DNA of 41,317 bases from Anaeroplasmataceae bacterium (GTDB lineage Bacteria; Bacillota; Clostridia; Christensenellales; CAG-917). The position numbers and the translations under genes are program-made. Position 1 is the first letter of the stretch; each line of letters opens with the position of its first letter. The DNA lies in assembly GCA_963659595.1 (NCBI GenBank), contig CAVKUX010000001.1, positions 1 to 41,317 of the forward strand. Reading direction: 5' to 3'. A model generated the notes under the pieces. It saw nothing but the letters and a program-made list of their open reading frames with translations. It was not told the origin of the DNA and searched no databases. This document shows, piece after piece, positions 22,694-33,478 of the stretch.

Positions 22694-23788
22694 ATGCAAG
22701 CAAGCAAAAGCAAAAACCTAAAAATCGTAATGTCGATTATGATTCCGCTTTTGATAATCGTGACCACCGTCGTTATGGTGGGCGCGTCTTTTGCGTGGTT
22801 CACCAACGCCGACAAGGTCACAATCACCGAAATCACGATGTCTACGGCGGATTCTTACAAAATCGACTTTACTCGTCAGCCGCCGTCCACCGACGGCAAA
22901 ACACTGTATGACAACATGCAGTACGTCGGACAGACCGCTTTTTGCGCAAGCGGCGCAAATGTCGGCAAACTTATGTCGGCAGCCGTTGCAGGCAACAACG
23001 ACGTCGACATAAGCAATCGCGCGTACTACTTCATCAACACCGTTGCGCTCGACACGCAGGGTAAAACCTTCGATATGAGTATGGCGTTTGACGGCGTGAA
23101 AATCATCAAATATAAACGCGACGCAGACGGCAAGATTGTCCAAGATGACAACGGTGCAAATATTGTCGAAAAAACAAACAAAATCTATGCCGCGCAAGGC
23201 GACAACGTTTCGCCGATGAGCGACATTCCTTATGCGTTCACTTGGTTTTTCAAAGCGCACGGCGAAACGGATGAAGACGGCGTGGTGAGGAACTATCAAA
23301 TCTACGACATCGACGAGCAAACGCAAGGGAAAAAACTCAAACAATTCCAGCCGCAAAAGAATGAAGTGTGGTACACACCTTACGGCAAACTCACTTTCGG
23401 CGACGACAATCTCGTTGCGCTCGTAAACGACGACAGTACAATCGATTCAACGAGCATAAGGGACGTTGACAAGCGCGTCATCGACAATTTCGGCACGCAG
23501 GGCGTAGGCGACTCCACGTCGCAACTGTTCGATTTCTACATCGTTTTTGCGCCCGAAAAACTGTTCTGGATGCAGTTTTTCTCGCAAGACAGAGACAAAT
23601 ACACCGCAACCGACATCTACACAACTACGGTTGACGGCGAAACGAAAAACGACGACACCAAAAAGATTTTTGAATCATTGTCCAATCAGATGTACTATTC
23701 GCATATGGATTATTCGGGTTCTACGTTTGAATTTTCGGCGGTGATCAACGTGACGACAATGCACGAGGAGGCGCAGAACAATGAATAA
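22694..23788 (+). CDS. Secreted or anchored protein with a SipW-dependent-type (TasA/camelysin-like) signal motif; function unknown
   Basis: 364-aa ORF with RBS AAAGGA. The N-terminus is KSKNLK + hydrophobic IVMSIMIPLLIIVTTVVMVG + ASFAWFTNADKV, resembling the GGT(L/F)A(Y/W)F(T/S)D motif of SipW-cognate signals. Confidence 0.8.
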   Translation: MQASKSKNLKIVMSIMIPLLIIVTTVVMVGASFAWFTNADKVTITEITMSTADSYKIDFTRQPPSTDGKTLYDNMQYVGQTAFCASGANVGKLMSAAVAGNNDVDISNRAYYFINTVALDTQGKTFDMSMAFDGVKIIKYKRDADGKIVQDDNGANIVEKTNKIYAAQGDNVSPMSDIPYAFTWFFKAHGETDEDGVVRNYQIYDIDEQTQGKKLKQFQPQKNEVWYTPYGKLTFGDDNLVALVNDDSTIDSTSIRDVDKRVIDNFGTQGVGDSTSQLFDFYIVFAPEKLFWMQFFSQDRDKYTATDIYTTTVDGETKNDDTKKIFESLSNQMYYSHMDYSGSTFEFSAVINVTTMHEEAQNNE

Positions 23789-24605
23789 GACAAAGCGCAC
23801 TCTCATCGTTTCATCCGTTGTTATGGCACTCATATTTGTCGTCACCGTCGTCAGCGTGACCGCCGCGTGGTTTACAAACGTGTCGGACAGCAACGAAGAC
23901 GGCTTCACAACCGACTCCGCACTGTTGTCGGAAAGTGCAAGCATAACCATCGACGAGAACGCCGCAAGCGACTATGGCACTGCGGTTTGGCCCGCCGTGG
24001 CAACGTCCGGCTACCTCTCAAAAGGCAATTTTGCGCCATATGGTACGGACTTGAAAAAAACGCAAAGCGGCACAATAGATATTGCGGCAAAATGCGCCGT
24101 GATTTACTTCCCGATTGCGTTTGTCGGCTCGTCCGATACGCAAACCGTAGACGGAAACCAAGTTTCTATTGACGGAAGAAAATCGCTTATGCTCAGCGTC
24201 AATTCGGCGTATCTCGACAGCGACACCGAAAAGGTCAACGATTATCTGTCCGCTTTCAACGTCGAAATGGAACTCGTCACCTTGAAAGATGACGGCGACT
24301 CCAAAACAAGCGAAAAGATAACGTCGGTTGCGCCGAGCGATTTTTCAAGCAATCCGAGTGCGATATACTACAATCAACCGTTTACAACCGACGCAAAATT
24401 GCCGAGTTACAAACTTTATATGCTCGTAATTCCCGGCGAAACTTACTACGTCAAAGCGACAATCTATTTCAACCAAATCGACGAGGAGTGCAACGAGAAA
24501 CTCATATACTTCGAAAGCACGCAAAAATCGATAGCGTTCCAATTTGAAATAAAATACAATGTCGGCGATGACGTGGATATAAGACAAGGAACTATGCCCG
24601 CATGA
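23781..24605 (+). CDS. Second protein with a SipW-type signal motif; function unknown
   Basis: 274-aa ORF that overlaps the previous stop by 8 nt, with RBS GAGGAGG. The N-terminus is KTKRTL + IVSSVVMALIFVVTVVSV + TAAWFTNVSDS. Confidence 0.8.
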   Translation: MNKTKRTLIVSSVVMALIFVVTVVSVTAAWFTNVSDSNEDGFTTDSALLSESASITIDENAASDYGTAVWPAVATSGYLSKGNFAPYGTDLKKTQSGTIDIAAKCAVIYFPIAFVGSSDTQTVDGNQVSIDGRKSLMLSVNSAYLDSDTEKVNDYLSAFNVEMELVTLKDDGDSKTSEKITSVAPSDFSSNPSAIYYNQPFTTDAKLPSYKLYMLVIPGETYYVKATIYFNQIDEECNEKLIYFESTQKSIAFQFEIKYNVGDDVDIRQGTMPA

Positions 24606-25291
24606 TGTCTCTTCGCAAAAACAAAATCGCGATGCTGGTCGCAATAATAGCGCTTTTTGCAGTCGCCGTTTCGGCGATGGGCGTTTCCTATGCGGTTTGG
24701 ATTTCTCACGACGGCACGAGTGGCGGCGGCTCGTCAAAAGCGTCTCCGTCCGTTACGCCCGACTCAAACAACGTCTGGGCAAAGTATTTCAATTATAAGG
24801 TAATAACCGTCGAGGGCAAGGATGGCAAGTACGTCGAAATATCCACATTCTACACCGACGGCGCAAACAGTCAGGGGCTCAATTTGTCCGACTTGTACAT
24901 TCCCGAAGTCATTTGGGTGGAAAATGGCACAAACAAAGTGCTTGCAACGCTGGACGGCGTAAGCGCAGGGGCGTATGAAACTTACAGCGTTTATCGCATT
25001 ACAAACAGCATTTTTGCCGATTCGACACTCAAAAGCTTGCCCGTAACGATTCATATCCCTGCAAGCGTATGCGAGATAGACGCTGCCGCTTTTGCAGGTC
25101 TGCCAAATCTTAAAGCCGTGTATTTTGAAAACAGAATGCCGTGCACGTTGGGCGAGTATGCGTTTGCAGGCTGCACCAATCTCGCATCCGTCTACAACGT
25201 CAACGGCGGCGGAGTAACGCCTACCGACACCTCTTTTGTCGGCACACAAATCACCGTCACAAACGGACAAATTCAGTTTGCACAAGGTTAA
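24602..25291 (+). CDS. N-terminally anchored BspA-type leucine-rich-repeat protein
   Basis: 229-aa ORF with an ATGA overlap onto the previous gene. N-terminal anchor IAMLVAIIALFAVAVSAMGVSYAVWISHDG (a divergent version of the AWFTN motif). C-terminal IPASVCEIDAAAFAGLPNLKAVYF...LGEYAFAGCTNLASVYNV is the BspA/LRR_5 pattern. Confidence 0.8.
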   Translation: MMSLRKNKIAMLVAIIALFAVAVSAMGVSYAVWISHDGTSGGGSSKASPSVTPDSNNVWAKYFNYKVITVEGKDGKYVEISTFYTDGANSQGLNLSDLYIPEVIWVENGTNKVLATLDGVSAGAYETYSVYRITNSIFADSTLKSLPVTIHIPASVCEIDAAAFAGLPNLKAVYFENRMPCTLGEYAFAGCTNLASVYNVNGGGVTPTDTSFVGTQITVTNGQIQFAQG

Positions 25292-25399: not shown

Positions 25400-25674
25400 G
25401 GAAAAACGGTTTTACAAAAGAAAGAAACGATTTGCTTTAGATTATATGGAAGCGTATCGAAGCGGTCATAGCAGGCGTGTCTTGCTTGGTAGCGAAGCGT
25501 CAAACCGTTTGGGCAGGAAACGGTTTTGAAAAAAAAGAAACGATTTGCTTTGATTTTATATGGAAGCGTATCGAAGCGGTCATAACGAGCGTGTCTTGCT
25601 TGGTAGCGAAGCGTCAAACCGTTTGGGCAGAAAACGGTTTTGCAAAAAAAGAAACGATTTGCTTTAGATTATAT
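25400..25674 (+). repeat. Tandem repeat (partial unit + 114-nt + 113-nt units). Each full unit starts with a copy of the first ~28 nt of tRNA-Ser.
   Basis: Units begin at 25448 and 25562 with GGAAGCGTATCGAAGCGGTCATA..., as does the true tRNA at 25675. Unit tails (aaacggttttgcaaaaaaagaaacgatttgctttagattatat) also recur at 25400-25447. Confidence 0.85.
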
Positions 25675-25763
25675 GGAAGCGTATCGAAGCGGTCATAACG
25701 AGGCGGTCTTGAAAACCGTTTGGGTGAAAGCCCACGGGGGTTCGAATCCCTCCGCTTCCGCCA
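25675..25763 (+). tRNA. tRNA-Ser (anticodon UGA), class II with long variable arm, CCA encoded
   Basis: Hand-folded cloverleaf: acceptor GGAAGCG/CGCTTCC, D-stem TCG/CGA, anticodon stem GCGGT/ACCGT with loop CTTGAAA, variable arm GGG-tgaaag-CCC, T-arm GGGGG-TTCGAAT-CCCTC, discriminator G + CCA. Confidence 0.9.
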
Positions 25764-25770
25764 AAAATAT

Positions 25771-25846
25771 GCTGATGTGGCTCAGGTGGTAGAGCACATC
25801 CTTGGTAAGGATGAGGTCACCAGTTCAAGTCTGGTCATCAGCTCCA
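25771..25846 (+). tRNA. tRNA-Thr (anticodon GGU), CCA encoded; integration target of the downstream element
   Basis: Acceptor GCTGATG/CATCAGC, D-arm GCTC-AGGTGGTA-GAGC, anticodon stem CATCC/GGATG with loop TTGGTAA, T-arm ACCAG-TTCAAGT-CTGGT, then T + CCA. Confidence 0.92.
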
Positions 25847-25848
25847 AA
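25802..25848 (+). repeat. attL core (47 bp, part of the intact tRNA-Thr)
   Basis: ttggtaaggatgaggtcaccagttcaagtctggtcatcagctccaaa is identical to 35200-35246. The flanking bases differ on both sides. Confidence 0.85.
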
Positions 25849-25892
25849 AACGCCATTTTTCGTGGTTTGTTCCGAAAATGGCGTTTTTCTTT
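25848..25892 (+). terminator. Rho-independent terminator directly after tRNA-Thr (supplied by the integrated element's left arm)
   Basis: AACGCCATTTT(T)CG ... CGAAAATGGCGTT followed by TTTTCTTT. The same sequence recurs at 35404-35448. Confidence 0.7.
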
Positions 25893-25968
25893 ACCTTTTT
25901 TACCCAAATTGACACTCGCAATGACCGCTTTTTGCACGTTTTTTGCAGAATCGTGTGTCAAAAGGGTG

Positions 25969-27201
25969 TCAAAATTCGGGATAAAAATCGCCGTAGATAT
26001 TCTTAATATCTATCGCCGAAATCGTCGGGTCTAAACTCGTGTAAAAGTCATTCGTCGTCTTTGTCGTAGTATGCCCCATATACGCCGCGCGCTCTTTGTC
26101 CGGGCATCCCAAATAGTATAGGTTAGTTGCGAACGTATGTCGCAACGTGTAAACCGTGACGTACGACTTAATCCCACAATACTGCTCTACGAATTTTTGC
26201 AGCCGCTGACGGAAGCGTTTGAGGTCGAAACGATAGAACTCGCTCGGCGCGTTTTCAAACAACGTCATTGCGCGCTCGGATAACCTAATCCAACGGTCCG
26301 CGTGCTTTGTTTTCGTGCCGACAAGATGAACGAATCCTTTTTTGATTTCCGTGACGGTTTTCATCTCTGCCGGGCGTGCGCCGGTGAGCAAATAAAACAT
26401 CACGCGCTTTCCGAAGTTTGTATCGAGGTCGAGATTCTGAACGAGTCGCTGTTGGTCCTCGATACTCAATGCGTCAAGCCGTTCGTCTTGCGTTTTACCT
26501 TTCTCGATTAAGTCACCGAGATGCTTTTTTATAAAATCCAAAGCATACGCCTTTTTGAGAATTTGCACGAGCAACGAAAACACTTTGCCCCGAAGCGACG
26601 TCATCGGAAGGGCATTGATTAACCCTTGCACTTCCTCGATACGCAATTTGCATAGCAGCGTGTTGCTGTTCAGATACTTTTTCACCGTCGAAAGATACTG
26701 TTTGTAGGTGCTTTCGACAACGTATTGCTTTTTGAAGTTCTCGACGTAGAATATCCCGAACTCGTACAACGTCATACATTCGTGAACGCCCGACGCAAAG
26801 TATTGTTGAGGGTTCTTTTTGAGTTCTTTTTCTAATTCGGCTCTTTTGTGGCGGCACTCGCGCTCCGTGTTACCGTAAACATAATGCCGCTTTCCGCCAT
26901 AAATGACATATAATTGATACCGACCGTCTTTTCGCAAGACGGGTTTTACTTTTTGCATATCGGCTCCTTTATCCGACACGCTTTCGCTCTCTGTTTTTTT
27001 CGCCTCCTTATTTATTTCGGCGCGCTTGCTGCGCGGCACGAATTGAATGACGTTGCCCTTGCGCGTTCGTTGCTCGGACGGCAACGTCTGATGCGGAATA
27101 GTCGGCGCGTCGCTTATGTGCGCGCTTGCGCGAATCCCGGATACATAGCCGGATAATATCCCGCTTATTTGTTCCAAAACTGAAAATAAAGCCTCATCCA
27201 T
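25969..27201 (-). CDS. Tyrosine recombinase / phage-type integrase
   Basis: The C-terminal catalytic region has TGARPAEM ... HTLRHTFATNLYYLG ... YMGHTTTKTTNDFYT (the R, H-x-x-R, H, Y signature). The gene sits next to the tRNA att site. An alternative start is at 26958 (MQKVKPVLRKDGRY, RBS GGAG); the 27201 start has an AGGGGG RBS. Confidence 0.9.
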   Translation of the reverse strand: MDEALFSVLEQISGILSGYVSGIRASAHISDAPTIPHQTLPSEQRTRKGNVIQFVPRSKRAEINKEAKKTESESVSDKGADMQKVKPVLRKDGRYQLYVIYGGKRHYVYGNTERECRHKRAELEKELKKNPQQYFASGVHECMTLYEFGIFYVENFKKQYVVESTYKQYLSTVKKYLNSNTLLCKLRIEEVQGLINALPMTSLRGKVFSLLVQILKKAYALDFIKKHLGDLIEKGKTQDERLDALSIEDQQRLVQNLDLDTNFGKRVMFYLLTGARPAEMKTVTEIKKGFVHLVGTKTKHADRWIRLSERAMTLFENAPSEFYRFDLKRFRQRLQKFVEQYCGIKSYVTVYTLRHTFATNLYYLGCPDKERAAYMGHTTTKTTNDFYTSLDPTISAIDIKNIYGDFYPEF

Positions 27202-27268: not shown

Positions 27269-27625
27269 TTATGCCAGACGATTTTTGCGACTCTCGTAAG
27301 ACGCGCGAAGTTCTCGCCCGGATATAATACCGCGAGCATAATTGACGAGGTTGCTTTGTTCTTCCGGCGTCATACGTTCGTACAGTTGCAATATTTCCGG
27401 TTGCTCGATTCGTGCATTGTCAAAAATATCCGACGAGGACCTTCCGAGTAGTTCATCGACCGTAACGCCGAAAAAGTCGGCTAATGTATTAAGTGCAGAT
27501 AAAGACGGTTCTCTCTCATCTGCCTCATAACTGCCGTATGCTCTCGTAGACATTCCGCACGCTTGCGCGACATCTTTTTGCAATAAGCCTTTCGATTTTC
27601 TTAATTCAAACAACGTAGTTTTCAT
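27269..27625 (-). CDS. XRE-family helix-turn-helix transcriptional regulator (cI-like repressor candidate)
   Basis: MKTTLFELRKSKGLLQKDVAQACGMSTRAYGSYEADEREPSLSALNTLADFFGVTVDELLG is a canonical HTH_XRE. The start is taken at the ATG at 27625; the ORF track extends to a TTG at 27661. No SD precedes either start. Confidence 0.85.
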   Translation of the reverse strand: MKTTLFELRKSKGLLQKDVAQACGMSTRAYGSYEADEREPSLSALNTLADFFGVTVDELLGRSSSDIFDNARIEQPEILQLYERMTPEEQSNLVNYARGIISGRELRASYESRKNRLA

Positions 27626-27679
27626 AGTTATATAGTGCACGTTTTGTGCGATTTCAATCAATAAAAATACAAAAAGCCA

Positions 27680-28204: not shown

Positions 28205-28381
28205 ATGAAAATCACAACAATTTTTGGCAAAGTCCTATCCGGCATCGTAAGCGCGATTATTTCGCTTGCAATCCTATTCTTTGGCGGCATAGGCATTGTC
28301 GCGCTCGTAACAAAACAGGATTATGTAACCGTTATGAACACGGCTTTTGAATGGATCAAGAATCTCGCAGCATCAAAGTGA
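28205..28381 (+). CDS. 58-aa hydrophobic membrane protein (candidate coat-like protein)
   Basis: The start MKITTIFGKV is preceded by GAGG 8 nt upstream. It has a long hydrophobic core, VLSGIVSAIISLAILFFGGIGIVALV. The ORF-track start at 28130 lacks an RBS. Confidence 0.6.
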   Translation: MKITTIFGKVLSGIVSAIISLAILFFGGIGIVALVTKQDYVTVMNTAFEWIKNLAASK

Positions 28382-28389
28382 GGCGCACT

Positions 28390-28998
28390 ATGGCAAAAAA
28401 ACCTGCAAAAAAGATAAACTACGGAAAAGTCATCGGATTTGTGTCGTATGCGATCATTTTGCTTGCGCTGATCGGTGTTCTGGTGTTTTTCGGATATTTC
28501 ACAAACTGGTTTTCGTCTGACTTCAAAACGTTTTATTTAAAAGTGAACGGCGAAACCGTGATGAACGACAAGGACAGTTTGACGATCGTGCCGACGCAGC
28601 CTCTGAGCATCGAAGCAAAATATACTTTGGGGCTTTTGGATAAGAATCAAACAGGATATTCATTCGAGATAAAAGCAAATCCGAATGTCGATTTGAGTTT
28701 TTCGGTTGACGGTGAAACGGTTTCTTTCCAAAGCGGCGATATCGATTGGAGCAAGTGCTTTGACATCTCAGAAGAAGAAAACGGTTTTACTCTCACGCTG
28801 AAAGGCTGGGATATGCTCGAACTGTTGCAATGCGTATATCCGGATAGCGAAATTGTGTTGGATGCCGATGTGGACTATACCCAAAACTTGTTTAATCTCA
28901 CAGTATATTCACACGATAAAAAGGCGGCTGTCACGCTGGGAATTTGTATATCAACGATTCAAAGCATCGAACTTGATCAAACGAGGATGGTCTTTTGA
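28390..28998 (+). CDS. N-terminally membrane-anchored protein (202 aa), unknown function
   Basis: The start MAKKPAKKINYGK is preceded by GTGAGG. A TM segment (VIGFVSYAIILLALIGVLVFFGYF) is followed by a beta-rich ectodomain. Confidence 0.7.
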   Translation: MAKKPAKKINYGKVIGFVSYAIILLALIGVLVFFGYFTNWFSSDFKTFYLKVNGETVMNDKDSLTIVPTQPLSIEAKYTLGLLDKNQTGYSFEIKANPNVDLSFSVDGETVSFQSGDIDWSKCFDISEEENGFTLTLKGWDMLELLQCVYPDSEIVLDADVDYTQNLFNLTVYSHDKKAAVTLGICISTIQSIELDQTRMVF

Positions 28999-30488
28999 TG
29001 AAAAACATACTACATAAAAACAGAGTTTTGCTATATGCAGTTGTATTTGCGCTCATCTTTTGCACGGTATTTTTTGCCGTGCAAGATTTGGGGCGCGTTG
29101 CGCTTGCTGCCGACGTTGAATACTCCGATGTTTTGGATGATCTGAAAGTCGATTCGTCATTCTCGGCGGATAACTATCCGAGTAAAATCGACGATTATTC
29201 TATTTCACTAATAACAATCGCGGAAGGCAAAAACAACGACGTATATGCTTACGTTTATCAGCCGTCCGGAAAAGTGAAAGACTACAAAGCGAGCAGCATC
29301 AACGTTTCGACATCGATAAACGACGCTATTTCTTATTACAACTACAAGTTGGAATTTTGCAATAGTTATGGCGTTTTCTACAAATACAAAATCACAGATC
29401 TTACGGTAACACAAGACAATATCCGCTATTACAATATTACGTCGATATATCGTCCGTTTGACGAGCAAGTCGACGAGCAGGCAAGCGGCGGCAACACGAT
29501 AACGGAAGTGCCGTTTGCGGTAAACAGACAATATGCTTTCGGAACTGTTGACGGCAAGCCGTACGTTGAATGTATTGAGATTGAAACGATTGTTGTCACT
29601 GACAAATTTGTCGGTTTTGTCCGTTACGAAAACGGCTTTACGCTTTTACCGACTGCTTGCGACTCTCATTTTGTCGCTTTTAATACGGATAAACCGATGG
29701 ACAAATTGCTCGAAGCCGATGTGTATTATACATCGCGACATTGTGTTTTCACACAATATTCGATTATAGATACCGACAATATCTCTTTTGATGAAGGAAA
29801 AGATGAATATGCATATTTGAAATACACAGATTCGGTTGAACATTCAAAAGGTTGGTTCGCTAAAACTTATAAATGGGATAGGATTCAGACCGTCGATGAT
29901 TTTATCGCCGGTGAGAATAGAAAAACCATATATGAAGGCGCAATCATCGACGTTGGAACAGACTCGGCTATATCAGATGATGCGCTCAGCGAACTCAAAG
30001 GCAAAAAGTGGGTTTTGCGCTTTGCCGAAACAAGTTATTTATATAATCATCCGGCACCATTCACCAATTCGTACCAATTTACGATAGTCGCCGACGTTAC
30101 AATCTTGCGTTTGAAGTTTGAAACGGACGGAGTGGTCTACAATCTCGGCGTTATAGACAACAAGCAAAGCGGCAGCAATGATCCTATCAACGACACCGAC
30201 ATCGAAGTCGATGTCAATCCTGAAATAAAAGAAAGTTTGAAAAAGAATTTTAAGTGGTTGCTTATTTTGCTTTGCATTGTCATTGCAATCATTGCGCTTG
30301 CGCCGTTATTGCCATATCTGATAAAGGGCATCGTTTGGTTATTTACATATCCTCTCAAACGAGTTGGTGAATCGTTCGAAAACTATCACAAAAAGCAACG
30401 CGCAAAAAAAAGCACGACGCGGCGCAAATCAAAATCCAAAGAAACAAAACACAAAAATAAATCTGCGAAAAACGCAGGAAGGAGTTAA
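28995..30488 (+). CDS. 497-aa secreted protein with a C-terminal membrane anchor and a strongly basic tail (pIII-like topology)
   Basis: ATGA overlap with the previous gene. N-terminal signal-like segment ending VALAADV. C-terminal TM WLLILLCIVIAIIALAPLLPYLI, then HKKQRAKKSTTRRKSKSKETKHKNKSAKNAGRS. Confidence 0.75.
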   Translation: MMKNILHKNRVLLYAVVFALIFCTVFFAVQDLGRVALAADVEYSDVLDDLKVDSSFSADNYPSKIDDYSISLITIAEGKNNDVYAYVYQPSGKVKDYKASSINVSTSINDAISYYNYKLEFCNSYGVFYKYKITDLTVTQDNIRYYNITSIYRPFDEQVDEQASGGNTITEVPFAVNRQYAFGTVDGKPYVECIEIETIVVTDKFVGFVRYENGFTLLPTACDSHFVAFNTDKPMDKLLEADVYYTSRHCVFTQYSIIDTDNISFDEGKDEYAYLKYTDSVEHSKGWFAKTYKWDRIQTVDDFIAGENRKTIYEGAIIDVGTDSAISDDALSELKGKKWVLRFAETSYLYNHPAPFTNSYQFTIVADVTILRLKFETDGVVYNLGVIDNKQSGSNDPINDTDIEVDVNPEIKESLKKNFKWLLILLCIVIAIIALAPLLPYLIKGIVWLFTYPLKRVGESFENYHKKQRAKKSTTRRKSKSKETKHKNKSAKNAGRS

Positions 30489-30490
30489 AA

Positions 30491-31390
30491 ATGGCAACAA
30501 GAAAAGATTATCAAAATCGCAATAAAGCACTCGGCGCAATTGTCGCCGTGTTGCTTGCGCTTATAATGTGCGCGGCTGCTGTTCTCGGCGTTGGCTTCGG
30601 CGTGTACGGCAAGAATACTGACGATTGGTTCAAGCCCAAACAAGAGAATCAAGGTCAAGAGCAAGAGGAAAATGCAGAACAAGATCCGATTCCGATTGAG
30701 GTGATCCAAACAAACAACATTTCGCTTCTGTCAAGCGGAGCAACAGCGGCATCGGACGGCACAACGACAAAGACCTTGACGGCAACGGTTTCGCCTTCGG
30801 ATGCAAGCACTTTGGATTATGCTTGGACTGTTGAGTTTGTCAATTCTTCTTCCACTTGGGCGAAAGGAAAAACCGTTACGGACTATGTGACGGTTACCAA
30901 AGACAGTTCGAACCAACTAAAAGCGACCGTTACATACAAAAAGGCTTTCAGTGAACAAATCAAAGTCACCGTGTATTGCGTTTTGAAACCCGATATGAAG
31001 GCTTCGGCAACCGTAGATTGCTACAAAGACGTTACCGATTTGACAATTACTTTCACGGGCGCAACAACTGTTGTGTGCAAAGGCATCGGTCAGGATCAGG
31101 ACACGACAGTGACAGGATATTTTGTCGCGTCGAAATATACCGTGTCGATTGATGCTACATATAGCGACGGCACTATTGTGAGGGACCGCATTTATGGTAG
31201 CGTAACAAATAATGTGTCTTTCGATGAAGAGCGTGCAGATGAAATCGATTTGACATCTGCCGGTCTGACTTCGAACACATACTGTGATATAGCGATTGAT
31301 TATGGTCAGGATAGGATTGCCGAATACAGTGTGAAATTTTATCAATATCCAACCTCTATTTCGTTGGACAACACAGCAATAAAATTCTAA
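30491..31390 (+). CDS. N-terminally anchored protein (299 aa) with an Ig-like (Big_2-type) ectodomain
   Basis: Starts 2 nt after the previous stop, with a GGAGT RBS. TM LGAIVAVLLALIMCAAAVLGVGFGVY. KTLTATVSPSDASTLDYAWTV resembles bacterial Ig-like group 2 repeats. Confidence 0.7.
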   Translation: MATRKDYQNRNKALGAIVAVLLALIMCAAAVLGVGFGVYGKNTDDWFKPKQENQGQEQEENAEQDPIPIEVIQTNNISLLSSGATAASDGTTTKTLTATVSPSDASTLDYAWTVEFVNSSSTWAKGKTVTDYVTVTKDSSNQLKATVTYKKAFSEQIKVTVYCVLKPDMKASATVDCYKDVTDLTITFTGATTVVCKGIGQDQDTTVTGYFVASKYTVSIDATYSDGTIVRDRIYGSVTNNVSFDEERADEIDLTSAGLTSNTYCDIAIDYGQDRIAEYSVKFYQYPTSISLDNTAIKF

Positions 31391-31487
31391 GAGATTCTAA
31401 AAACTAACGATCATAATTTTCCCTCATTGGTGCGCGCACGTCTAAGTGCGTGCGCGCGCCACTCATCTAACTCTAAGGAGCAAAACA

Positions 31488-31970
31488 ATGGACGCAACCA
31501 TAATGGTTATACTGCGCGAGATCCAACTCGAATGTCATCGTCAAATCGGCATCGAGCGCAGAGGCGGTCGCGCAATAAAGGAAGAAGAGATCGAGCCATA
31601 TCCCGAACGCTGTGATTTTGACGGAGCGGTTTTGCCCGGGCAAACTCTCGCTCAACTTGTTGAATCAACCGAATCGGAATCACCCGATCCGCAAATGACG
31701 GTTGATGAGGCGATCAGCAACGCCGAAAAAGCATCTGTATCAGAAGAAGCCGCCCTCGAGCACAGCCCTCGAAGCAAACTCGGAGCGTGGTTCGAGGCTG
31801 TCAGAAATTGGCACTACGACCGCAAAGAAAAGGAATACAAATACGAGTGCGCAAAGCAGCGCGCAGAGGATAGGACATACGGATTCGAGTATATCTCGGA
31901 TTTTATAGACGACTATATCAAACGCCTTGAAAAAGACGAATCGAGCAACACAAACGGACAGGTCTTCTGA
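31488..31970 (+). CDS. Acidic hypothetical protein (160 aa)
   Basis: The start MDATIMVILREIQ is preceded by AAGGAG 7 nt upstream. Its stop overlaps the next gene's start (TGATG). Confidence 0.65.
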   Translation: MDATIMVILREIQLECHRQIGIERRGGRAIKEEEIEPYPERCDFDGAVLPGQTLAQLVESTESESPDPQMTVDEAISNAEKASVSEEAALEHSPRSKLGAWFEAVRNWHYDRKEKEYKYECAKQRAEDRTYGFEYISDFIDDYIKRLEKDESSNTNGQVF

Positions 31971-32950
31971 TGAGTATCAACGGCATAATCATAGCAGGCG
32001 TGTGTGGAATCGTTGCCGCAATAGCGAGTTACGCAATACTGCGCAAGCACTTTCGAGAAGTGCCAATCGAGCGCACCAACACAGTGACGGACGAATTCAT
32101 AGACAAACCCATTCCGCCGGGCGTGTATATCATCGTCGGACCTCAGGGCGTTGGCAAAACGTCGTTTCTGAATGCACTCATCTCGATTGATTCAAAGTAT
32201 CACGGCGCGCAGCGGCTGCAAATGGCGAAAGCCGAAATCGACAAACTCAACGACATAGGCTACAAACTCACGTTGCCGCCGTGTCCGTATCGCACACGCT
32301 CGAAACTGTTTCTGCCCAACGGCAAGCCGACGTATCATACGGACATCTCGCAATTCGGGCTGCCCGGGCGTCGCTCTGAGGTTCAATACTTTCCGCCGTT
32401 CACGGTCATCGGATGCGATGAGATAGACTCGTTTATGGACTGCCGCGAGTGGAACAAGAACGGTTCTATGAAAGCGGACATTATAGACGGTTTTAAGTAC
32501 ATCAGACATCACGACCTCGTGTTTCTCGGCGACGTTCAGAATTTCAGCAAGGTTGACGCTGCTGTTAGGAAACTCACGACAGATGTCATCTACATACTCG
32601 GCAAAAAAGACATATACGGCAAAAAACATCGTTTCAGCCGCAAAAAGACCTTGCTACGCACCGAATGGGAGTTTATTTGGGTAAAACACCAACAAGCCGA
32701 GAATGCTGCTTCTTTAAGCGAAATGGGCATCGAGATCCACGAGAAAAACGCTCGGAAGTGCAGACTCATATATGAGGGCAATATCTATTCGCAATATAAC
32801 TCGCAAAGCGGAAAGCCGTACTGGTATCGAGGCATAAAACAATTCACAATCGAAAAGCATCCGGAAAACGCATTGAGTCCGGAAGGCGTAGACAAATACT
32901 GCCGTCAGAACGCACTCAACTATGACGACACGGCACAAGAAAAGCAATGA
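31970..32950 (+). CDS. Membrane-anchored P-loop NTPase, Zot / filamentous-phage pI-like morphogenesis ATPase candidate
   Basis: N-terminal TM (GIIIAGVCGIVAAIASYAIL). Walker A VYIIVGPQGVGKTS (32138-32164). Walker B TVIGCDEID about 90 aa later. Then REWN...IIDGF.YIRHHDLVFLGDVQNFSKVDAAVRKLTTDVIY, which parallels my recollection of Ff gpI (DECGTWFNTRSWN...IIDWFLHARKLGWDIIFLVQDLSIVDKQARSALAEHVVY). Confidence 0.6.
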   Translation: MSINGIIIAGVCGIVAAIASYAILRKHFREVPIERTNTVTDEFIDKPIPPGVYIIVGPQGVGKTSFLNALISIDSKYHGAQRLQMAKAEIDKLNDIGYKLTLPPCPYRTRSKLFLPNGKPTYHTDISQFGLPGRRSEVQYFPPFTVIGCDEIDSFMDCREWNKNGSMKADIIDGFKYIRHHDLVFLGDVQNFSKVDAAVRKLTTDVIYILGKKDIYGKKHRFSRKKTLLRTEWEFIWVKHQQAENAASLSEMGIEIHEKNARKCRLIYEGNIYSQYNSQSGKPYWYRGIKQFTIEKHPENALSPEGVDKYCRQNALNYDDTAQEKQ

Positions 32951-33193: not shown

Positions 33194-33478
33194 ATGGCAG
33201 ATTTGAGTTATTTCCAAACGCTGACCGCGCCGTTCAGAGCGGCGGACGTCGGCAAATACGTGACTTTCGCATCGGACGGCGTTGCATTCAGTTACAACTC
33301 GCCCGGGATTGCGTTCCATTTTGCCCAAACGTCGAAAAATCGATACATGATCCGAGCGATCTATCTCGGCAAGTTCGAGGAATATGCATATCAAAGTCAG
33401 CGCGATGCAATCGGATTTGCCGTGAAACTGCTCAATCTCGATTGTGCCGGAGCGTTTAGAGCCTCTAAATCGCTCTGA
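33194..33478 (+). CDS. Hypothetical protein (94 aa)
   Basis: ORF with coding-like composition after two palindromes. The RBS is weak and no motif was recognised. Confidence 0.5.
   Translation: MADLSYFQTLTAPFRAADVGKYVTFASDGVAFSYNSPGIAFHFAQTSKNRYMIRAIYLGKFEEYAYQSQRDAIGFAVKLLNLDCAGAFRASKSL

Follow-up and report, generated by a model that had tools for sequence, protein, structure and literature searches.

The window analyzed here, that is, the whole 41,317-nt stretch of contig CAVKUX010000001.1 from an Anaeroplasmataceae bacterium, contains a 9.4-kb element integrated in a tRNA-Thr(GGU) gene, and within this element a plus-strand open reading frame (ORF) at 31970..32950 encodes a 326-aa ATPase of the Zot/pI superfamily. 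The product of this ORF is likely to be the ATPase that serves morphogenesis (assembly/extrusion) in a temperate inovirus-like element that resides in tRNA-Thr of Christensenellales-type Clostridia. The tRNA-Thr gene lies at 25771-25846, and the 47 nt at its 3' end (attL, 25802..25848) recur as an exact copy (attR, 35200..35246; direct repeat D3, 100% identity) at a spacing of 9398 nt. Two minus-strand genes stand ahead of a plus-strand block: a tyrosine integrase at 25969..27201 (PF00589, 31.8 bits with a cutoff of 27.1; phrog_1 integrase, E = 2.4e-31) and an XRE/Cro-type helix-turn-helix (HTH) repressor at 27269..27661 (PF01381, E = 1.3e-13; PHROG transcriptional regulators). The plus-strand block encodes, in order, a 68-aa protein, a 58-aa protein, o215, o497, o299, o174, the ATPase, and proteins of 94, 157, and 131 aa, and it is followed by approximately 650 nt of non-coding DNA.

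The ATPase Gene and Its Conserved Motifs

The first-pass annotation of this DNA had described the ORF as a Zot/pI-like ATPase with an inverted membrane topology, and the motifs on which that description was built are all present in the protein. The Walker A motif GPQGVGKTS occupies residues 57-65 (32138..32164, plus strand), exactly where it had been placed, and the Walker B motif TVIGCDEID occupies residues 145-153 (32402..32428, plus strand), one residue earlier than the approximate position given. The stretch characteristic of pI and Zot proteins, WN…IID.F…R…D(L)VFL.(D)VQN.SKVD…R…V(I)Y, was likewise found as described, at residues 161-208 (32450..32593, plus strand), with W161-N162, I171-I172-D173, R179, D182-L-V-F-L-G-D-V-Q190-N-F-S-K-V195-D196, R200, and V206-I207-Y208 as its signature residues; it is matched by the Pfam Zot model and by PHROG 1675. 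In the family alignment the Walker A columns G57, Q59, G60, G62, K63, and S65 are invariant or nearly so, K63 being invariant, and the Walker B columns T145, E151, and D153 are invariant.

Behind this core lies a family-specific C-terminal region that lacks a transmembrane (TM) segment (32594..32947, plus strand) and consists of a beta-rich subdomain, the motif GNIYxQYNSxSGKPYWY, and a disordered tail. Its invariant columns are G270, I272, Y276, S278, and W285, and distant relatives can be aligned up to profile position ~320. The AlphaFold2 (AF2) model of the protein, computed with 23 homologues as input, has a mean predicted local distance difference test score (pLDDT) of 79.6 and a predicted TM-score (pTM) of 0.74; it has residues 3-28 in a helix, an alpha/beta core modeled with confidence, and strands at residues 205-269, with a tail that is predicted to be disordered beyond residue 281 (pLDDT below 50 at residues 281-302 and 307-326).

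The ATG of the ATPase gene overlaps the TGA of the upstream gene o174 (tgATG), and the same stop/start overlap recurs in the related loci L018, L019, and L020 (L-numbers denote related loci and P-numbers homologous proteins throughout); the start codon is therefore well defined. The whole-gene dN/dS ratio is 0.034 in comparison with L001 and 0.063 in comparison with L002, at dS values of 0.6-0.7, and the gene is thus under strong purifying selection.

An N-Terminal Membrane Anchor with a Cytoplasmic ATPase Domain

A single hydrophobic helix at residues 6-24 (31985..32041, plus strand) precedes the ATPase core, with a Kyte-Doolittle mean of 2.52 over 19 residues, which agrees with the TM helix previously proposed at residues ~5-24. 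No second hydrophobic segment was found beyond residue 24 with either a strict threshold (19-residue window, 1.6), which misses the known TM segment of M13 pI, or a relaxed one (17-residue window), and the calls for the ATPase family of the window were unchanged between the two. The protein ends 118 residues past Y208, so that the earlier statement that it stops about 120 residues after the core without another hydrophobic segment is borne out.

The helix is found at the equivalent position in 21 of 23 homologues that are 46-93% identical to the window protein; in the exceptions, P0029 and P0032, the N-termini differ and are not hydrophobic. In comparison with L005, dN is 0.605 over residues 1-35 and 0.060 over the remainder of the ATPase. 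Because the helix stays hydrophobic despite this fast divergence, it behaves as a membrane anchor rather than as a specific interaction surface. The 21 sequences together have no Lys or Arg residues ahead of the helix and 75 within the 15 residues behind it, which by the positive-inside rule puts the short N-terminus on the outer side of the membrane and the ATPase domain in the cytoplasm (N-out/C-in). The N-terminal TM anchor is therefore real. The term "inverted topology" captures the fact that the anchor has moved to the N-terminus, but it overstates the case in that the ATPase domain remains cytoplasmic, as it is in M13 gp1. An origin of the anchor by fusion with an upstream small membrane protein was considered and rejected: the 87-aa protein encoded upstream of a TM-less relative in L017 has no TM segment.

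Membership in the Zot/pI Superfamily

Comparison of the window ATPase with the Pfam Zot model (PF05707) gave 16.2 bits (E = 0.0074), with residues 149-226 aligned to profile positions 87-161, whereas the competing Pfam families are confined to the P-loop. Three PHROG families, 1675 (protein I of M13), 197 (Zot-like), and 20922, match within residues 140-226. An NCBIfam search returned only P-loop noise, and the window gene was missing from the E ≤ 1 matches of a six-frame PF05707 search of its own genome, consistent with its marginal Zot score.

The link to Zot is considerably clearer in the relatives of the protein. The Zot model matches 14 of the 23 close homologues (best E = 6.6e-5), and P0030, which is 48% identical to the window ATPase and also carries an N-terminal TM segment, exceeds the cutoff with 21.7 bits, as does P0084 with 28.4 bits. 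An exhaustive profile search of 1.84 billion representative sequences retrieved 185 proteins at E ≤ 1e-3, and among ten distant relatives sampled, eight are above the Zot cutoff with Zot as their sole or best-scoring family. In HH profile comparisons the family of the window matches the distant family with a probability of 100%, and the distant family in turn matches M13 pI (96.4%), Vibrio fs1 pI (95.8%), and Orf8 of Propionibacterium phage B5 (92.8%); the family of the window also reaches B5 Orf8 directly (76.6%, E = 2e-5, 142 columns). BLASTP against M13 pI yields 27% identity over 165 aa (pairwise E = 4e-4) from the P-loop through the sensor motif and pairs K63 with K14 and D150/E151 with D88/E89 of M13 gp1; the profile hidden Markov model (HMM) alignment to M13 pI also spans the signature stretch after Walker B. 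Finally, a Foldseek search of the AF2 model against the PDB ranked the Zot N-domain 2R2A first (E = 4.7e-6), with RecA, phi8 P4, and FlaH ranking lower, and the top viral matches include models of Inoviridae "Zot" proteins.

To interpret the single-protein score it is helpful that M13 pI obtains 180.6 bits on the Pfam Zot model, whereas B5 Orf8, an accepted pI of an inovirus of Gram-positive bacteria, obtains 25.0 bits; the model is built around Gram-negative sequences. Because P0030, P0084, and eight of the ten distant relatives pass the cutoff, and B5 Orf8 itself reaches only 25.0 bits, the window ATPase lies just past the reach of the Zot profile and not outside the superfamily. The proposed HMMER check against PF05707 consequently has a split outcome, the protein itself scoring below the threshold and its relatives above it. 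Transitive profile links, HH comparison, BLASTP with M13 pI, and the 2R2A fold together place the window ATPase in the Zot/pI superfamily, at the level of the superfamily and with an individual score below the Pfam threshold.

Phylogeny and Distribution

Among the 147 ATPase cores placed in a maximum-likelihood tree, the sequence from the window belongs to a clade of 22 rows (SH-aLRT 97), 18 of which have an N-terminal TM segment. A separate, second clade with N-terminal TM segments (SH-aLRT 98) comprises P0084, P0087, P0112, P0116, and P0127. Proteins without a TM segment surround both clades in the tree, and M13 and fs1 pI, with their C-terminal TM segments, are in the outgroup together with the TM-less B5 Orf8. 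The N-terminal TM label requires at least six changes on the tree, yet it is far more clustered than in shuffles. To the question whether N-terminally anchored variants form a clade, the tree gives two supported clades and not a single one. In the sequences sampled, a background of Zot-like ATPases without TM segments gave rise to the N-terminal anchor on at least two occasions.

No hydrophobic helix was detected in 105 of the 144 relatives that could be classified (from P0037-P0181), nor in B5 Orf8 (L013:3274-4200). Given that most related Zot-like ATPases lack a TM segment, anchoring by the ATPase's own TM segment is not a general property of this branch. That the TM-less relatives are true proteins of inoviruses follows from one of them, P0088, which is encoded in L017 next to a 379-aa replication initiator (Rep; Pfam REP_ORF2-G2P, 29.8 bits with a cutoff of 27.8) and matches GenBank inovirus genomes in which the corresponding protein is annotated as Zot.

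The family has a patchy distribution and is present in 9 of 61 related genomes. Its named hosts are Christensenella sp., Clostridia, and Candidatus Scatosoma metagenome-assembled genomes, and the host lineage of the window is a monoderm-type lineage of Clostridia.

One contig with an ATPase of the second clade, L021 (L021:1-14097), is 14.1 kb long and has a 29-nt terminal overlap, the only such overlap among the contigs of 8-14 kb that were checked; it is therefore probably a circular 14.1-kb genome. In addition to the N-terminally anchored Zot-like ATPase, it encodes an integrase, an HTH regulator, a protein with sigma-70 region 2, and a BspA-type leucine-rich repeat protein. It also encodes a superfamily 3 (SF3)-type helicase (PF00910, 27.2 bits with a cutoff of 21.5), and the clade of the window has no comparable gene.

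Genes and Non-Coding DNA Surrounding the ATPase

Cross-locus BLAST comparisons define a conserved core that consists of the HTH gene, the 58-aa protein, o215, o497, o299, o174, the ATPase, and o94, and o174 and o94 immediately flank the ATPase in the relatives in which their orthologues were found. The 58-aa protein (28205..28381, plus strand) is basic (isoelectric point 9.7) and largely hydrophobic with TM segments, and it is conserved in L001, L002, and L005; its size and TM segments fit the coat protein criterion of Roux et al. (PMC6813254), making it a candidate major coat or small virion protein. It is followed by o215 (28351..28998, plus strand), an N-terminally anchored membrane protein (TM segment at residues 30-46) with weak orthologues in L001, L002, L006, and L007, and by o497 (28995..30488, plus strand), which resembles pIII in having an N-terminal signal or TM segment, a large ectodomain, a C-terminal TM segment at residues 422-438, and a basic tail; an orthologue in L007 is 34% identical over 424 aa. 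The next gene, o299 (30491..31390, plus strand), encodes another N-terminally anchored membrane protein (TM segment at residues 16-32) with orthologues in six related loci.

Immediately upstream of the ATPase gene and translationally coupled to it, o174 (31446..31970, plus strand) encodes an acidic non-membrane protein that has no family match in Pfam and PHROG scans and whose orthologues are located directly upstream of the ATPase in L001, L002, L005, L006, and L018. Downstream of the ATPase, o94 (33194..33478, plus strand) encodes a conserved partner with orthologues by BLAST in L001, L002, L005, L006, and L018 and homologues from L019 and L020 in the alignment. Its AF2 model (pLDDT 90.7) contains helices, five beta strands, and one long helix. 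A gpV-like oligonucleotide/oligosaccharide-binding (OB) fold had been hoped for, and comparison with the PDB gave no significant neighbor; the nearest folds, all non-significant, are Pur-alpha, a repeat of which is the best match (E = 0.13), and the Whirly-like MRP1/2 (ββββα). Binding of single-stranded nucleic acid by o94 is accordingly only a lead from modeled structure. The adjacent o157 (33544-34017, plus strand) encodes a very basic 157-aa protein (isoelectric point 10.0) with a Lys/Arg-rich tail and no family match; among the loci compared it is present only in the window and in L002, and it could be a DNA-condensing or accessory protein.

The element ends with a hairpin-rich non-coding region (34553..35199) that is a candidate origin or packaging region analogous to an inovirus intergenic region. 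Folded as single-stranded DNA, it is markedly more stable than shuffled sequences (z = -4.29 for the plus strand and -4.67 for the minus strand; none of 20 shuffles as stable), whereas a coding control is not (z = -0.09). Such a structured region is compatible with, and no proof of, an inovirus intergenic region. An Rfam search of the element identified only two tRNAs, and 34553-35199 has no Rfam family.

Comparison with Known Morphogenesis ATPases

The combination of a Zot-type core and an N-terminal anchor is not new. Roux et al. (2019, Supplementary Notes, PMC6813254) distinguished two types of pI, of which the one with "atypical" architecture, iPF_00013, is defined by Zot as the closest domain, the absence of a C-terminal extension, and a transmembrane domain (TMD) that is usually N-terminal. 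Its hosts are mostly Gram-positive and also include wall-less bacteria, with isolates from Propionibacterium, Thermus, and Spiroplasma, and the N-terminal TMD is typical of inoviruses of monoderm hosts (PMC6813254). The window ATPase fits this description in each respect, with Zot as its closest family, no C-terminal extension, an N-terminal TMD, and a monoderm-type host; this likeness is based on the published description and on B5 Orf8, a stated member, as a proxy in HH comparisons. The first-pass annotation had presented the protein as a distinct architectural variant, a novelty that the earlier publication of iPF_00013 removes, and had judged such a variant plausible for a host with neither outer membrane nor secretin partner, a suggestion with which both the published host range and the monoderm-type host of the window agree. 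The N-anchored pI architecture is thus already published, and the window ATPase is a further example from an inovirus-like prophage of a monoderm host.

Phage B5 provides the closest parallel. Like the window ATPase, B5 Orf8 has a Zot-type core without C-terminal extension or periplasmic domain and is marginal on the Pfam Zot model, and the B5 gene order of Orf5 (coat, 57 aa), Orf6 (485 aa), Orf7, and Orf8 (pI) is paralleled in the element by the small TM protein, o497, further proteins, and the ATPase. B5 Orf6, with TM segments at residues 15-31 and 446-462, is similar to o497 in size and topology. There are also differences: by the same hydrophobicity measure B5 Orf8 has no hydrophobic helix, whereas the window ATPase has one at its N-terminus; a rep gene directly follows the pI gene in B5, whereas none is recognizable in the clade of the window; and the conserved C-terminal region of ~120 residues with its GNIYxQYNSxSGKPYWY motif and the partners o174 and o94 distinguish this clade from B5.

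The classical pI proteins are more distant. The Walker A Lys, the Walker B Asp-Glu pair, and the signature stretch of M13 gp1 and CTXphi Zot align with those of the window ATPase, and the ATPase domain is cytoplasmic in both cases; K14 and D88/E89 of M13 gp1 are essential for M13 assembly (Loh et al., PMC5408679). M13 gp1 has its TM segment at residues 254-270, a C-terminal domain in the periplasm, where it contacts the gp4 secretin, and an internal gp11 product (PMC5408679). Thus, a classical pI starts at the P-loop and has its TM segment behind the ATPase domain and a periplasmic tail, whereas the window ATPase has an N-terminal anchor and no periplasmic domain, and we found no evidence of a gp11 equivalent. 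Tested as a classical pI of the iPF_00003 type (M13, CTX), the window ATPase does not qualify: there is no TM segment past residue 24, and the polar tail at its C-terminus is predicted to be disordered. The Zot N-domain of Neisseria meningitidis (2R2A), with a TM-score of 0.54-0.60 (target-normalized) at 13-14% identity, covers the ATPase core only and lacks the anchor and the C-terminal region.

Proposed Role of the ATPase and Alternative Explanations

In the preferred reading, the single N-terminal helix holds the ATPase in the cytoplasmic membrane, about five residues project to the outside, and the entire Zot-type P-loop domain (K63, D150/E151, and the Q190 motif) faces the cytoplasm. By analogy to M13 gp1, the ATPase would oligomerize at the membrane together with the 58-aa protein, o215, o497, and o299, and ATP hydrolysis would drive the loading of coat proteins onto the genome and the extrusion of the particle. 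The C-terminal TM segment and the periplasmic domain of the classical system, and with them its gp11 product, are absent and would be dispensable, the host being taken to have no outer membrane and no secretin. No secretin-like protein was found among the ORFs of the element; no search aimed at secretins was made in the host genome.

Several observations weigh against an inovirus-like assembly ATPase. The score of the protein on the Pfam Zot model is below the gathering threshold (16.2 vs. 20.3 bits), and PDB sequence searches, whether started from the protein alone or from the family profile, gave matches at the level of the P-loop only. By Pfam and PHROGs, no replication initiator, whether of the rolling-circle type or another, was recognizable among the unassigned ORFs of the element and of L018, L019, and L020. 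Roux et al. (PMC6813254) require of a genuine pI cluster that half or more of its loci also encode further inovirus functions, for example a replication initiation protein, and the clade of the window falls short of this: short TM coat candidates and a pIII-like protein are present in the element, and a Rep was found only near distant relatives (in L017, and possibly in the form of the SF3 helicase of L021). A tblastn search of the ATPase against 50,697 GenBank phage records gave no match, and a scan of IMG/VR with the family alignment found no relative, and the clade of the window therefore appears to be uncatalogued. Lastly, among the Foldseek matches to viral models, ORF3 of Acholeplasma virus L2 (P42538, 37.2 kDa, 312 aa; L011:2278-3216) is the fourth best (E = 2.5e-8) and as good as the inovirus Zot models, so that the fold alone is no proof of a filament.

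This last match bears on the strongest alternative, that the element is a provirus of the plasmavirus type (L2-like) or of another pleomorphic, enveloped, budding double-stranded DNA virus, in which the ATPase would drive genome condensation or budding. L2 ORF3 lacks a C-terminal TM segment and has hydrophobic segments at its N-terminus ahead of a P-loop (ALPGGGKS) at about residue 100, a layout like that of the window ATPase. L2 is temperate, with a genome of about 12 kb, an integrase, and no viral Rep, and related proviruses are found in tRNA genes; the element is similar in its integrase, its tRNA-gene site, its size of about 10 kb, its large proteins with signal peptides or anchors, and its lack of a recognizable Rep. 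The resemblance does not extend to sequence, however: L2 ORF3 has no Pfam Zot match, reaches only 12-24% in HH comparisons, and scores 0.2 bits with the HMM of the window family and 5.3 bits with that of the distant family, whereas the family of the window is closer to the pI proteins of B5, M13, and fs1. BLAST comparison of the element with L2 identified a generic HTH protein as the only one shared. L2 has an envelope and double-stranded DNA, infects a wall-less host, and starts replication at origins with DnaA boxes; no DnaA boxes were found in the element, and the host of the element is walled, which would make budding of enveloped particles harder. We therefore regard a plasmavirus-like provirus as unlikely. 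According to the profile of the ICTV (the international virus taxonomy committee), plasmaviruses share no homologous proteins with other viruses except the integrase, and a structural link between L2 ORF3 and the inovirus morphogenesis ATPases, as suggested by the models, may be under-appreciated.

Less probable still is that the protein is a DNA translocase of a non-viral integrative (conjugative or mobilizable) element, that is, a motor of the FtsK-HerA superfamily resembling FtsK, TraB, or TcpA that pumps DNA to a recipient. An N-terminal TM segment followed by a cytoplasmic additional strand, catalytic E (ASCE) ATPase would suit such a motor, pI itself was placed in the FtsK-HerA superfamily by Roux et al., RecA-like and hexameric motor folds are among the lower-ranked structural matches, and the element has an integrase, att sites, and surface proteins but no recognizable Rep. 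Yet no protein of the element matches an FtsK, TraB, TcpA, VirD4, or relaxase profile, the similarity outside the P-loop is specific to Zot/pI, and, at 326 aa with one TM segment, the protein is much smaller than FtsK-type translocases and is encoded among neighbors in the order of an inovirus structural module. An unrelated P-loop NTPase whose Zot likeness derives from generic Walker motifs, to which the P-loop-only nature of most single Pfam, NCBIfam, and PDB sequence matches with E-values near that of Zot would point, is largely refuted and very improbable in view of the Zot and PHROG pI matches outside the P-loop (residues 147-226), Zot as the sole or top family in eight of ten distant relatives, HH links of 93-100%, 2R2A as the top PDB fold match, and a genomic context that also points to Zot/pI.

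The assignment as an inovirus-like morphogenesis ATPase thus remains the preferred one, and it allows a gene left unnamed by Pfam to be annotated as a pI/Zot-type morphogenesis ATPase that marks a 9.4-kb prophage in an uncultured lineage of gut Clostridia. ATPase activity and a role in assembly are predicted by analogy to M13, and a filamentous particle with single-stranded DNA is presumed rather than observed, because the clade has no recognizable Rep and L2 ORF3 shares the fold and layout of the ATPase. The same two features are a caution against concluding from a Zot-like ATPase by itself that a virus is filamentous, and it is mainly from them, the Rep-less clade and the fold-level link to plasmavirus L2, that the interest of the element derives; beyond this, a well-sampled and strongly conserved clade is added to the published picture of pI proteins with N-terminal TMDs in hosts without an outer membrane. 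It is conceivable but doubtful that the clade of the window is an uncatalogued lineage of small temperate elements in Christensenellales and other Clostridia, characterized by an N-anchored Zot-type ATPase, o174, o94, no recognizable Rep, and absence from GenBank phages and IMG/VR. The lineage would then consist of filamentous phages that replicate by a new strategy or, alternatively, would connect Tubulavirales and Plasmaviridae in evolution.

Other Features of the Window

Past the element's right end, 165 nt of its left arm (25834-25998) recur as an exact copy at 35390-35554. This duplicate lies 143 nt past attR, includes the last integrase codons, and resembles what an earlier integration, or a tandem one, into this tRNA-Thr site would have left behind. 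It is followed by a gene pair for a RelB-type antitoxin and a ParE/RelE-like toxin (35654-36245). Upstream of the element, half of the window is occupied by a single ORF of 7,134 aa (1023-22427) that encodes a giant surface or adhesin-like protein, followed by three ORFs of 229-364 aa at 22694-25291. Between these ORFs and the element, an 82-nt direct repeat (25517-25598 and 25630-25711; 74% identity) lies just upstream of, and overlaps, the start of a tRNA-Ser gene, which suggests duplicated 5' fragments of tRNA-Ser in the leader of the tRNA operon.

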